DNA from: a plasmid
NCBI RefSeq assembly: GCF_055900595.2
Contig: NZ_JBVWEU010000009.1
Direction: 5' to 3' (one strand)
Length of the DNA: 5,152 nt
Under the pieces are notes generated by a model. It did no database searches and was not told the origin of the DNA. It saw only the letters and a program-made list of their open reading frames with translations. A program made the translations under genes and the position numbers. Shown here piece after piece: positions 1,966 through 5,113 of the stretch (position 1 is its first letter; every line of letters begins with the position of its first letter).

Positions 1966-2120
1966 TGTTAAGTAACTCATTCCGCCTTATGACTAAGGCT
2001 GCATGAGTATAAAAACTAAAAATAAATGCCCGTACCTAAAAAATGGAACTACATATACTTATGTACCTTGAGAATGACGGAGTTAATTTATCCTTTGTTG
2101 TCAAATTTTTGACCCAAACA

Positions 2121-2160
2121 GGGGCCGCTTGGTAGGGTATCTGAACTCCAATCGGTCCCC
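2121..2160 (-). terminator. candidate intrinsic terminator / GC-rich imperfect hairpin downstream of the minus-strand cargo gene
   Basis: On the minus strand, just after the stop codon (complement of 2172-2174), the sequence GGGGACCGATTGG-(15 nt)-CCAAGCGGCCCC forms an imperfect ~11-bp stem (one bulge, one mismatch) followed by UGUUUGGGUC. It is a GC-rich island in an otherwise AT-rich intergenic region between two convergent genes. The T-tract is weak, so this is only a candidate. Confidence 0.3.
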
Positions 2161-2171
2161 TCATAATGCCT

Positions 2172-2969
2172 TTATGTATTGAATTCTAATACAGGGTCGA
2201 ATTGAAACATGTCATTAAAATAACATAGTGCTGGATTACTAAATGTAATTGGTTCTGCTTCGGTATTTAGGTAATCCAACCATTCATAATAATCTTTTTT
2301 AAATTGCGTGTATGTTTCTTTTGTCATTGGTTTGAATTGATAACCAAAAGTTGTATGAAATCTATATGTGTCATGGTTTTTATGTTTCACTCCTGTTATT
2401 TCAGCAACGGAATTTCTAAAGTTGATTAGTATTTCTTTATCTGAGTTGCTTGCAGGAATTAAAGGTATAATAAAGGCTGGTTGTTTATTATCGTCCCACT
2501 CTGGAGGTAGCGATGGTGTAGATTTTAGATCTACCTTCATTGTAACAGGTTTTTCAAATCCTATTTGTTTATTTTTAAGTGTATTTGCAATTAACTTTGT
2601 CGCTTCCTCCATGCTTATATTCGTGGGGGTGTTATAAGGCCAAGGATTTTTTCTATCGCCACTAATTAAAGAAATGATAGTCATGTGATAAGAGTTTGGA
2701 GGTAATAACACAATGCAATCACCAAAATCTCGTTGAATTCGAACCTGAATATTAAGCATTGCTTTAAATAAATTGCTGTCTTTATCTGTATGGCAGATTA
2801 CGGAACATCCTTTATATTGTGCAACCTTTCCATTGCGATAAAATTTTGCGCCCTTATCAAGACCGTTGTTTTGTGCTATTTCGCATCGATTATTTTCAGC
2901 AAAAACAGTATTAGATGTTATTGCTGCTGTTACTAATGCGGAAGATTTTATAAATGTTCTTCTGTCCAT
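2172..2969 (-). CDS. Tat-signal (twin-arginine) exported protein with 2H phosphoesterase (LigT-like) motifs; AT-rich cargo gene
   Basis: The minus-strand ORF track starts at 3029, but the preferred start is the ATG at 2969 (complement of 2967-2969), preceded by AAGGAA 7 nt upstream. It gives MDRRTFIKSSALVTAAITSNTVFA-ENN: a twin-arginine motif (RRxFIK), a hydrophobic h-region and an A-x-A-like cleavage site (VFA), i.e. a Tat signal peptide. The mature part carries two H-x-T-x motifs flanked by hydrophobics, about 110 aa apart: LLPPNSYHMTIISL and YRFHTTFGYQF. This is the signature of the 2H phosphoesterase superfamily, and the first motif resembles the PPENLH-hydrophobic-T-L segment I recall in LigT. 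G+C is about one-third by eye. Confidence 0.6.
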   Translation of the reverse strand: MDRRTFIKSSALVTAAITSNTVFAENNRCEIAQNNGLDKGAKFYRNGKVAQYKGCSVICHTDKDSNLFKAMLNIQVRIQRDFGDCIVLLPPNSYHMTIISLISGDRKNPWPYNTPTNISMEEATKLIANTLKNKQIGFEKPVTMKVDLKSTPSLPPEWDDNKQPAFIIPLIPASNSDKEILINFRNSVAEITGVKHKNHDTYRFHTTFGYQFKPMTKETYTQFKKDYYEWLDYLNTEAEPITFSNPALCYFNDMFQFDPVLEFNT

Positions 2970-3014
2970 AACAGATTCCTTATTAGTGAATGTGAGTTTC
3001 TTCTTCATTAGAAG

Positions 3015-3042
3015 AATGTAAAAAAACATAAATAAAAGTCAA
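3015..3042 (-). promoter_or_regulatory. candidate sigma70 promoter for the Tat/2H-like gene
   Basis: On the minus strand: TTGACT (complement of 3037-3042), a 16-nt AT-rich spacer, then TACATT (complement of 3015-3020). This lies about 45 nt upstream of the ATG at 2969. The alternative in-frame ATGs at 3029 and 3008 would fall inside or abut this promoter and lack a Shine-Dalgarno sequence. Confidence 0.3.
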
Positions 3043-3237
3043 ACGGTAAAAAACGCCTAGGGGCTTTCACGAAACAAACGGATTTGTACGCTGAACTTTG
3101 ACGTCACCCCGTTTGGGGGAAACTCATCAGAACGCTATATCAAATTCCCGCAAAGGACTTCTCATCCAGGGGAGAAAATTTGTCATTTTGACCCGTTCGC
3201 CGTTCTGTACGGTCGAAACCGATCGCGCATCGCTTTC

Positions 3238-3253: not shown

Positions 3254-3353
3254 CGCGCTAAAAACGATTCTGACGCATTTTTTATGTTTACCCTGGTGTT
3301 TCCTTGTCTTTTTACGTTTTTTACGTCAGAAAGCGACTGAGGGCGTTTTAAGG

Positions 3354-3381
3354 GGTACGTACAAGAGGAGTTATGGTAAAT
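3354..3381 (+). other. cer-like XerC/XerD multimer resolution site (core)
   Basis: GGTACGTACAA-GAGGAG-TTATGGTAAAT. The left arm differs by one base from the ColE1 cer XerC arm as I recall it (GGTGCGTACAA), and the right arm is identical to the cer XerD arm (TTATGGTAAAT). The central region is 6 bp (cer has 8; dif and psi have 6). About 250 bp of non-coding sequence upstream (3100-3353) fits the accessory region. Confidence 0.6.
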
Positions 3382-3402
3382 GGATCGGGTTTGCGGGAAG
3401 GA

Positions 3403-3439: not shown

Positions 3440-3555
3440 GAAAAACAAACGCCCCTGAAATCATGTCCAGATCCGGCAAGATTCAACATGAAATACAGGG
3501 GCGAGGTCGGTCGATAACCTGGAAGGAATCGTAACACATGAGCGCCGCGCTTCAA
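3440..3555 (-). ncRNA. candidate antisense RNA (ColE2 RNAI-like copy-number control RNA) complementary to the rep leader
   Basis: A long interrupted hairpin in the rep leader: gcccctg (3451-3457) pairs with caggggc (3496-3502), and the inner arms tcatgt (3461-3466) pair with acatga (3486-3491). On the minus strand the stem is followed directly by GUUUGUUUUUC (complement of about 3440-3450), the shape of an intrinsic terminator for a minus-strand transcript. ColE2-type replicons are known to control Rep translation with a roughly 115-nt antisense RNA against the leader. The 5' end and promoter are not resolved, so the boundaries are approximate. Confidence 0.4.
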
Positions 3556-4473
3556 TACTTCGACGAAAATTTACCCCACCGTCCCTATCACACGGATGAT
3601 CTCGCTTTTGGTCTTCGCATCTCCGGCAAAGGGCGTGCGCTTCTTGCGCGGTACATACAGCAGAACCAGCCTCATGCGCAGTTCTGGCTGGTTTTTGACG
3701 TTGACCGCGAGGGGGCAGCGATTGACTGGAGTGACCGGAACGCTCCCGCGCCGAACATCACCGTAAAAAATCCTGTGAACGGTCATGCTCACCTGCTCTA
3801 CGCGCTCAATATCGCCGTGAGAACCGCGCCGGACAGCTCGGTTAAGGCGCTGAAATACGCCGCTGCGATTGAACGTTCGCTGTGTGAGAAACTTTGTGCT
3901 GATGTGAACTACAGCGGACTGATTTGCAAAAATCCGTTCCACCTGGAATGGCAGGTGATGGAGTGGCGCGAGGAAGCCTATACCCTCGATGAACTGGCAG
4001 ATTATCTCGATTTGAGCGCCTCAGCGCGTCGTAGCATCGATAAACATTACGGGATGGGGCGAAACTGCCACCTGTTCGAAATGACGCGCAAATGGGCTTA
4101 CAGGGCGATTCGTCAGGGCTGGCCAGCATTCTCACAGTGGCTTGATGCCGTGATTCAGCGTGTCGAAATGTACAACGCATCGCTTCCCGTTCCGCTTTCT
4201 CCGGCTGAATGTCGGGCTATTGGCAGGAGCATTGCGAAATACACGCACAGGAACTTCACGCCGGAAACTTTCGCACAGTATGTGGCTGATACGCACACAC
4301 CAGAAATACAGGCCAAGAGAGGCCGGAAAGGTGGTATCGCTAAAGGCGAAGCCTACGATGACAAGCGTTTCATGGCGCTATGTATGCTGGATAATGGATA
4401 TTCTCAGAAAGCTATTGCGGCGATGCTGAATGTACATCGTAATACGATCCGTAATTGGGCAATGCACAAATAG
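3538..4473 (+). CDS. rep: ColE2-type replication initiator Rep (plasmid-specific primase-like initiator)
   Basis: 311-aa ORF, ATG at 3538 with AAGGA at 3523-3527. The N-terminus MSAALQYFDENLPHRPYHTDDLAFGLRISGKGRALLARYIQQNQPHAQFWLVFDVDREGAAIDWSDRNAPAPNITVKNP closely matches what I recall of ColE2-P9 Rep (MSAVLQRFREKLPHKPY...QNQPHA...DWSDRN.PAPNITVKNP). The C-terminus has a helix-turn-helix-like segment (YSQKAIAAMLNVHRNTIRNW). The origin motif follows directly after the stop codon, as in ColE2. G+C is near or above half. Confidence 0.9.
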   Translation: MSAALQYFDENLPHRPYHTDDLAFGLRISGKGRALLARYIQQNQPHAQFWLVFDVDREGAAIDWSDRNAPAPNITVKNPVNGHAHLLYALNIAVRTAPDSSVKALKYAAAIERSLCEKLCADVNYSGLICKNPFHLEWQVMEWREEAYTLDELADYLDLSASARRSIDKHYGMGRNCHLFEMTRKWAYRAIRQGWPAFSQWLDAVIQRVEMYNASLPVPLSPAECRAIGRSIAKYTHRNFTPETFAQYVADTHTPEIQAKRGRKGGIAKGEAYDDKRFMALCMLDNGYSQKAIAAMLNVHRNTIRNWAMHK

Positions 4474-4515
4474 CCTATATCAGATAACAGCGCCTTTTCG
4501 GCGTCTTTTTGAGCA
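4474..4515 (+). other. ori: ColE2-type origin of replication (Rep binding and priming site)
   Basis: cctatATCAGATAACAGCGCCttttcGGCGTCTTTTTGAGCAg starts right after the rep stop codon (TAG 4471-4473). It matches the conserved ColE2/ColE3 ori core as I recall it (CCTTATCAGATAACAGCGCCCTTTTGGCGTCTTTTTGAGCA) with a few substitutions. Confidence 0.7.
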
Positions 4516-4569
4516 GCGGGCTTTCCGGCGGTTTTCTCCTTTCAGCCCAGCAATGGTGCGGCTTACCGT

Positions 4570-4640
4570 ATGATTGAGGTGGTCGTGCTCGCCGCAGTCT
4601 CATGACCGAGCGTAGCGAGCGAATGAGCGAGGAAGCACCA
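4570..4640. other. candidate single-strand initiation / primosome assembly site (ColE1 pas-like homology)
   Basis: GCTCGCCGCAGtctcatGACCGAGCGtAGCGAGcgaaTGAGCGAGGAAGC (about 4587-4636) is strikingly similar to the pBR322/ColE1 segment GCTCGCCGCAGccgaacGACCGAGCGcAGCGAGtcagTGAGCGAGGAAGC. In ColE1 this lies downstream of ori in the region of the PriA-dependent primosome assembly (n-prime) sites. Here it sits about 100 bp downstream of the ColE2-type ori, where lagging-strand priming would be needed. Confidence 0.4.
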
Positions 4641-4666
4641 GGGAACCGGAACGTGAACGGAGGCTC

Positions 4667-5113
4667 TTACGCACTGTCTTTGGTTAGTAGCTTCTTCCCG
4701 CGTCTTTCCCATTCCTGCCATTTTGGATGGTTGCGCGGTAGCTCTGCGATTCCTGCGAGTGCGCCTACCAGTTCGGCAGCACTACACTTTGGTTTTCCGG
4801 TTTTGCTGTCCACCAGTCCTGCCACAATCATGAGGCCTGCGGCCTTGTAGAGTTCATGATCCCGCGCTTTTCGTTCCGCCCTTGCGGCTGCCTTCCGTTC
4901 TGCCGCTATGATTGCCGTTACCCTGGCTTTTGCTGCGGCTGCTTTCTCTGCGGTTTTTTCTGCCCGTATCAGTGCGGATAACGTTTTTTCATCCGTCGTT
5001 GTTCGGTTTTTTTTCTCTGCCAGTAACACAAGTAATCTCTGCTGCTCTGACGGTGATTTCAGTCCGTTGATGTAGGCAATTTTTGCACTTAACCACTCTT
5101 CACGATTTGTCAT
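4667..5113 (-). CDS. mobC: MobC-like mobilization accessory protein (divergent from mobA across oriT if the molecule is circular)
   Basis: 148-aa minus-strand ORF. ATG is the complement of 5111-5113, with GAGGT 5 nt upstream. The protein is Ala/Lys/Arg/Glu-rich and helical (EKTAEKAAAAKARVTAIIAAERKAAARAERKARDHELYKAAGLMIVAGL, ELVGALAGIAELPRNHP), like the small oriT-binding accessory proteins found beside MOBQ relaxases. Its start is 39 bp from the window end; joining the end to the start puts it divergent from mobA with oriT between them, as mobC/oriT/mobA is arranged in RSF1010-type plasmids. The family call rests on position and composition, not on a recognised motif. Confidence 0.5.
   Translation of the reverse strand: MTNREEWLSAKIAYINGLKSPSEQQRLLVLLAEKKNRTTTDEKTLSALIRAEKTAEKAAAAKARVTAIIAAERKAAARAERKARDHELYKAAGLMIVAGLVDSKTGKPKCSAAELVGALAGIAELPRNHPKWQEWERRGKKLLTKDSA

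Follow-up and report, generated by a model that had tools for sequence, protein, structure and literature searches.

A candidate ssiA-type primosome assembly site beside the origin of a small ColE2-type plasmid

Downstream of the ColE2-type replication origin of a small plasmid, we found an imperfect hairpin element of about 54 nt (4585-4638, plus strand; positions are those of the window, the whole 5152-bp stretch of DNA analysed). From sequence comparison, we consider it probable (about 85%) that this element serves the ColE2-type replicon as an ssiA-family primosome assembly site of the phiX174 (n'/PriA-dependent) type. The assignment of the core to this family draws on a match to ColE1, conservation, covariation and strand asymmetry. 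ssi signals in F, R6K, R100 and ColE2 were reportedly described by Nomura et al. in 1991. PAS-type annotations of such plasmid sequences also exist in GenBank (for example HE610902 and MK599282, with the wording 'phiX174 primosome assembly site'). The idea put forward in the initial annotation, a primosome assembly sequence next to a ColE2-type origin, was therefore right and already known; an ssiA-type element in this place is ordinary plasmid biology.

An ssiA-family element between rep and mobC

The window appears to hold an entire small mobilisable plasmid belonging to the ColE2-type (Col156)/MOBQ4 group. On the basis of its open reading frames and annotated relatives, the gene order is mobA, two cargo ORFs, rep and a MobC/TraD-like gene. 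The mobA ORF (MOBQ4) occupies 133-1227 on the plus strand and the ORF for the ColE2-type initiator-primase Rep, whose homologues are annotated 'replication initiation protein', occupies 3538-4473 on the same strand. The ORF for the MobC/TraD-like relaxosome accessory protein, with relatives annotated 'conjugal transfer protein TraD', lies on the minus strand at 4667-5113. The closest plasmid records cover about 77% of the window at about 97% identity and carry annotations for MobA/MobL, replication initiation protein and TraD. The same architecture is described in the MOBQ4 paper, with a ColE2-like replicon, divergent mobA and mobC genes flanking oriT, and a cer-like site. The origin core, CCTATATCAGATAACAGCGCC (~4474-4495, plus strand), directly follows the rep stop codon (4471-4473), and the stop codon of the MobC/TraD-like gene is at 4667-4669. 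The element is thus intergenic, between origin and MobC-like stop codon, as initially annotated.

The sequence at 4570-4640 had been proposed to contain roughly 50 bp near-identical to a ColE1/pBR322 segment, and an alignment against ColE1 had been suggested as a check. This alignment returned a significant match to the ssiA region: 4587-4636 (plus strand) and ColE1 (NC_001371) 1311-1360 agree without gaps at 44/50 positions (E = 4e-10). Over the same interval a ColE1-like Klebsiella plasmid agrees at 46/50 positions, and a pBR322-type variant agrees with the element at 42/50, counted by eye. The similarity is therefore real, although with identities of 84-92% the term 'near-identical' was slightly generous. 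The proposed coordinates were right to within about 15 nt, the structured core being 4585-4638 with patchy similarity from about 4561. This 5' flank (4561-4584, plus strand) contains short stretches of the sequence that immediately precedes the element in ColE1-type plasmids (GCTTACCGT, ACCGTAT and TTGAG). It has a 9/9 match at a similar offset in L002, a ColE1-like Klebsiella plasmid (NZ_CP043601), shows 81% pairwise identity among ColE2-type plasmids and may belong to the functional ssi. On the other side, the tail CAGGGAAC (4639-4646, plus strand) is common to F/RepFIA-type and IncR-type copies and is lacking in ColE1-type and ColE9-J copies. We found no second copy of the element in the window, and no repeats at the element.

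We searched 72,556 plasmids (7.3 Gb) with a 131-nt query spanning 4540-4670. At least 5000 plasmid records matched, with unrelated replicons at E values of 1e-7 to 1e-11. Among the matches listed, ColE2-type plasmids aligned over the entire query, small ColE1-like plasmids aligned over 4587-4636 at 88-92% identity and large IncF/IncR plasmids over 4582-4646 at about 81-83%. The similarities were in each case to the ssiA-type core of ColE1 and F. No feature line for the element was present in the gene tables of the matches (PLSDB tables, which hold protein-coding genes only), and the element merits one in plasmid annotations. A search of a phage collection gave only short unannotated records and matches that seem to derive from plasmids or vectors. 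The single 'phiX174' record matched, Z35638 (3164 bp), has the identity typical of ColE1/vector-type copies.

The element was described initially as transplanted, as though peculiar to this plasmid. This wording did not hold up: the element is present in 8/8 close ColE2-type plasmids examined, namely ColE9-J and seven others, and its distance from the origin is the same in each. ColE9-J is a classic ColE2-group plasmid; its 52-nt core is identical and lies equally far from the same origin motif. In a divergent ninth ColE2-type plasmid, L037 from Citrobacter braakii, the element lies about 45 nt nearer to the origin. Mean pairwise identity among eight ColE2-type plasmids is 96.6% for the element (4585-4638), 94.5% for the origin core and 93.9% for a short block at 4546-4559, compared to 64-81% in the spacers and 49-64% in the neighbouring ends of rep and mobC. 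Since the element is conserved like the origin and its flanks have diverged, these results indicate that purifying selection maintains it as a resident part of the ColE2-group replicon.

The same comparison bears on the possibility that the element was left behind by recombination with a ColE1-type plasmid and is now a neutral relic with no present function. The abrupt end of ColE1 similarity at the edges of a 50-65 bp core would fit such a relic, as would the mosaic nature of small enterobacterial plasmids, here reflected in a nearest relative that covers only 77% of the window. A relic does not account, however, for origin-like conservation amid diverging flanks, for helices maintained by compensatory base changes or for a position and strand relative to the origin that are kept across three replicon classes. 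The comparative data effectively refute this reading, which we consider highly improbable.

Comparative evidence for a fold on one strand

Related elements were collected by scanning one genome per species for an exact pattern, GCTCGCCGCAG followed after 20-35 nt by GAGCGAGGAAGC. The scan identified 100 loci, which yielded 33 distinct cores after addition of the window and three earlier loci; two of the hits resemble chance matches. The two boundary blocks are 27 nt apart in most cores and 26 or 28 nt apart in most others, and the window carries both blocks at the 27-nt spacing of the family. We then aligned 36 distinct 54-nt variants for a test of structure, with the structure being read off these same sequences.

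In the window, the plus strand can be drawn as an imperfect hairpin of three tiers. H1a, formed by GTGC (4585-4588) and GCAC (4635-4638), closes the whole element, and H1b pairs TCG (4589-4591) with CGA (4628-4630). H2 pairs CTCAT (4599-4603) with ATGAG (4623-4627). The apical H3, CGAGC-GTA-GCGAG (4607-4619), pairs 4607-4611 with 4615-4619 around a triloop at 4612-4614, and contains a GCGNAGC mini-hairpin with a GNA triloop and tandem G·A beneath it.

Compensatory changes are present in nine pairs across the 36 distinct variants. The two outer pairs of H1a switch among CC/GG, GT/AC and GC/GC, with 14 and 9 double changes. In H2, all five pairs have both partners altered in one variant or more: TCGAT/ATCGA in one RepL-type plasmid amounts to three compensatory pairs, other variants read CTCAC/GTGAG, and the CGARC/GTGAG of ColE1 and F has a tandem G·A/A·G at mid-helix. 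The top pair of H2 changes from C:G to T:A 11 times. In H3, the 4610/4616 pair is G:C in 31 variants and A:T in 5, and the 4607/4619 pair is C:G, G:C or A:T. H1b is paired in 36/36 variants and shows no variation, so covariation neither supports nor refutes it. The triloop reads G-N-A in 32/36 variants, its middle base being free. In F-type copies, two G:C pairs replace the tandem G·A of H3 to give GGGC-GAA-GCCC; the GCGAAGC within it is, we presume, the unusually stable DNA mini-hairpin of Hirao.

Overall, 81.8% of cells form standard pairs, compared to 73.6% in shuffles (0/500 reach the observed value) and 16-57% with slid partners; the 36 variants are related, so such cell counts overstate independent events, and in most sequences 4587-4597 and 4625-4636, comprising much of H1b and H2, were fixed by the search pattern. 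A blind RNAalifold run arrived at the same outer helix, top of H2 and apex, and chose another register in the invariant middle (H1b). When the window, ColE1, F and Klebsiella copies were folded singly as DNA, on both strands, z scores relative to shuffles ranged from -1.3 to +1.0. As folding energies are no better than those of shuffled sequences, the structure rests on the comparative evidence. GCGNAGC has 5 matches in the window against 2.6 expected and is thus not diagnostic as a motif on its own.

The mismatches point to the strand that folds. Helix cells other than Watson-Crick pairs comprise 7 G·T, 107 tandem 5'-GA/3'-AG and 7 isolated others, and neither A·C nor C·T occurs in the helices of the 36 variants. 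The complement of such cells would consist of A·C and pyrimidine-pyrimidine clashes, which argues that the plus strand folds and has been selected to fold, and that the complementary strand would not fold. The tandem G·A positions hold Watson-Crick pairs in other family members; this exchange is as expected if both arrangements keep the helix continuous. On this comparative evidence, the element forms its hairpin as single-stranded DNA and on one strand only.

Pairing-preserving covariation and G·T/G·A confined to one strand are unexpected for a site read as duplex by a resolution, partition or regulatory protein. Nor does the region read well as an RNA element or terminator. Terminators often occur between convergent genes, as here, yet the hairpin is not followed by a T-run, searches at the element gave no terminator, promoter or Rfam match, and rep has a terminator-like hairpin of its own at 4490-4504. 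Mechanically called ORFs overlap the element on the plus strand (4602-4850) and the minus strand (4563-4721), which might suggest part of a small coding sequence, but the family occurs in many contexts, its flanks differ and its length varies by ±1 nt, which leaves no conserved reading frame. Taken together, we regard an origin of the conservation in any of these functions as very unlikely. A single-stranded primosome assembly site remains our preferred reading, and the closing helix, the G·A tandems and the GNA triloop offer concrete, testable determinants for PriA recognition. The GNA triloop and the exchange of tandem sheared G·A with Watson-Crick pairs could help to define what PriA recognises, unless mutational studies of the 1980s have already done so.

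Strand, distance and proposed function

ColE2-type origins contain CAGATAA repeats, and Rep primase makes an AGA primer within the origin (PMC3632715, PMC5304414). In the window, AGA occurs on the plus strand only of the conserved core, at 4482-4484, and ATCAGATAACAGCG is invariant in nine ColE2-type loci. Details of the ColE2 primer, ppApGpA, were reportedly provided by Takechi et al. in 1995. Given the published primer and the restriction of AGA to the plus strand, leading-strand synthesis should proceed rightward and displace the parental plus strand. The element begins 105 nt downstream of this AGA on the plus strand. With the published primer, it is therefore placed on the displaced strand, the lagging-strand template, a short distance past the start of the leading strand. 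In all eight close ColE2-type loci the 3' block of the element follows the origin motif by 134-146 nt, on the rep-sense strand; in L037 the distance is 101 nt.

The arrangement in ColE1 is equivalent. There, the motif GGAAAAACGC, which contains the established RNA/DNA switch, is at 1191-1200. By our own placement of the switch, the ColE1 element lies 115-165 nt downstream, on the displaced RNA II-sense strand. In pBR322 it lies about 128-177 nt downstream by our own count. The ssiA/n'-pas has been described on the displaced strand at the matching place downstream of the ColE1 origin (PMC3167613), and the initial annotation was correct in assigning the matching ColE1 segment to this region. Its further suggestion, of a lagging-strand priming signal shared by otherwise unrelated replicons, is supported by homology and by the equivalent position and strand of the element relative to the ColE2 primer.

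The window element and ColE1/pBR322 ssiA have identical 11-nt and 12-nt boundary blocks at the same 27-nt spacing, the same hairpin architecture, the same strand relative to leading-strand synthesis and similar start distances (105 nt here, about 115-128 nt there). They differ in the origin served, which is of the Rep-primase type (class C) in the window and of the RNA II/RNase H type (class B) in ColE1. They also differ in H2, which is fully Watson-Crick in the window (CTCAT/ATGAG) and contains tandem G·A in ColE1; in the closing pairs (GT/AC as opposed to CC/GG); and in the 3' tail, which is the F-like CAGGGAAC in the window and GGAAnAG in ColE1. In addition, ColE1 has a DnaA box, TGTGGATAA, about 35 nt upstream of the element, whereas the window has none there. 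A search for TTWTNCACA with up to one mismatch found no DnaA box in 4278-4972. An ABC-primosome ssi of the R6K kind, with a DnaA box resembling TTATCCACA on the hairpin stem, was considered as a candidate and rejected; the absence of a box near the element makes a site of this type unlikely. By description, the element also resembles the prototype, the phiX174 PAS, which PriA recognises as a fork-like hairpin when the single-stranded DNA is coated with SSB (PMC5778457).

Based on ColE1 ssiA and on what is known of PriA, from which the protein steps are inferred, we propose the following sequence of events. Rep would synthesise the short AGA primer at the origin (4482-4484, plus sense), DNA polymerase I would extend the leading strand rightward, and the parental plus strand would be displaced. 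Once about 105-160 nt had been displaced, 4585-4638 could fold into an imperfect three-tier hairpin that mimics a fork, consistent with the description of PAS sites as fork-like hairpins recognised by PriA (PMC5778457). PriA would bind this hairpin, followed by PriB and DnaT, and DnaC would load DnaB onto the plus strand. DnaB would then travel 5'->3' with the fork and recruit DnaG, so that lagging-strand primers are laid down and the Pol III replisome takes over. Such a site would explain how a ColE2-type plasmid, whose Rep primase starts the leading strand only, is handed over to the host replisome. Not every ssi element is required for replication; the ssi-like palindromes of pHW126-like plasmids are dispensable yet affect multimerisation.

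ssi signals also serve conjugative DNA synthesis in other plasmids. The present plasmid is mobilisable (MOBQ4 mobA at 133-1227 and mobC at 4667-5113, with oriT between them) and the element adjoins the mob module; the hairpin might therefore prime the complementary strand in the recipient after single-stranded mobilisation, either mainly or in addition. A conjugative role would not, however, explain why distance and strand relative to the vegetative origin are fixed in ColE1-, ColE2- and F-type replicons of any mob content, or why the element is also found in replicons typed as non-mobilizable, such as L002. We think a conjugative role unlikely, while noting that priming of this kind would involve identical biochemistry and would fit alongside the vegetative lagging-strand role that we favour.

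Two other features lie between rep and the element. One is a terminator-like hairpin at 4490-4504, GCGCCTTTTCGGCGT with CTTTTT after it, which directly adjoins the ColE2 origin or overlaps its 3' part. This hairpin, probably the rep terminator, is deleted in ColE9-J-type plasmids. The block at 4546-4559, CCCAGCAATGGTGC, stands out between origin and element with 93.9% identity against 68-81% in the surrounding spacers, and might be part of an extended ssi or a protein site. A hairpin in this block was rejected as a helix, as no compensatory changes were seen by eye in the ColE2-type alignment.

Distribution across replicon classes and plasmid context

For the comparison of flanks, every locus was oriented with the element on the plus strand. 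In ColE1-type loci with RNA II upstream on the same contig, the element was always on the RNA II-sense strand, and it started 10-80 nt past the end of RNAII/ori homology (about 300 nt in two loci). In the ColE2-type loci (the window, L059, L063, L087 and L037), the strand of the element carries the ColE2 origin and rep upstream of it. In F-type loci, the element is between resD and repE. BLAST added further loci, in ColE9-J, three more ColE2-type plasmids, a RepL/Col(MG828) plasmid and an IncR/IncFIB(K) plasmid. The occurrence of one cassette in ColE1, ColE2, F, IncR and RepL-type replicons is an example of modular plasmid evolution.

Copies of the element differ in their interiors and ends in ways that cut across these classes. 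An inner subtype CTCAT...GCGAATGAG is present in the window and ColE9-J and also in Pectobacterium and Klebsiella ColE1-like plasmids. Another, GGCAGGAGCGTAGCGACTGAG, is present in the ColE2-type plasmid L037 of Citrobacter braakii and also in other ColE1-like plasmids. ColE9-J itself has GC/GC closing pairs and the tail AAAGGCG, where the window has GT/AC and CAGGGAAC. The F plasmid (RepFIA, with related IncR/IncFIB(K) copies) resembles the window in its boundary blocks and their spacing, in about 81-83% identity over 4582-4646, in GT/AC closing pairs and in the tail ACCAGGGAAC; unlike the window, it has the canonical GGGC-GAA-GCCC hairpin as its interior and lies beside an iteron-type origin. 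The window copy is thus a mosaic: its interior resembles that of ColE9-J, and its closing pairs and 3' tail resemble those of F. Together with the subtypes common to several replicon classes, this mosaic suggests that the cassette has been exchanged more than once, and earlier exchange between replicon classes is plausible. A broader proposal is that the ssiA hairpin of about 54 nt may act as a portable cassette, transferred repeatedly between unrelated replicon classes, and may also be a recombination joint in its own right; separately, its architecture could be the feature read by PriA. We put this forward tentatively, as something that may well not hold. The subtype distribution across replicon classes adds only mildly new points.

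Many of the hits lay in non-enterobacterial assemblies. Copies of pBR322/pUC type or F type were found on short contigs (L005, L008, L015, L016, L038, L052 and others) in assemblies of Streptomyces, Cutibacterium, Streptococcus, Microbacterium and various MAGs. Their flanks are ColE1 origin sequence (73-94% identity) or F sequence at 100% identity, and these copies most likely represent contamination by cloning vectors or E. coli plasmids. In the Klebsiella plasmid L002 (1501-1789), the element is followed on its own strand, about 50 nt further on, by rop, whereas in ColE1 and pBR322 rop is on the opposite strand from the element; the region downstream of the element in L002 appears to be rearranged.

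Several features elsewhere in the window are recorded here. About 23% of the window, at ~1980-3100, lies outside the coverage of the closest plasmids, which have a LysE-family gene there. The 285-aa cargo ORF at 2172-3029 (minus strand) has an internal Met followed by a Tat-like signal, RRTFIKSSALVTAAITSNTVFA. At 46-68, between mobC and mobA, an inverted repeat CATCCCTGATTAATTCAGGGATG followed by CGCACTTAG is likely the oriT hairpin. The complement, CTAAGTGCG, is reminiscent of the RSF1010-type nic region, although arranged the other way round relative to the repeat. The MOBQ4 paper does not define a nic site or the transferred strand. At ~3353-3382, GGTACGTACAAGAGGAGTTATGGTAAAT resembles a cer-type XerC/XerD core, judged against the cer consensus. 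Finally, 3449-3571 (plus strand), just upstream of the rep start and extending into it, has a weak Rfam match to PK-repBA, a rep-leader pseudoknot (33.9 bits, below the gathering score of 45; E = 9e-5), and probably corresponds to the leader of the rep mRNA on which the ColE2 antisense RNAI acts.
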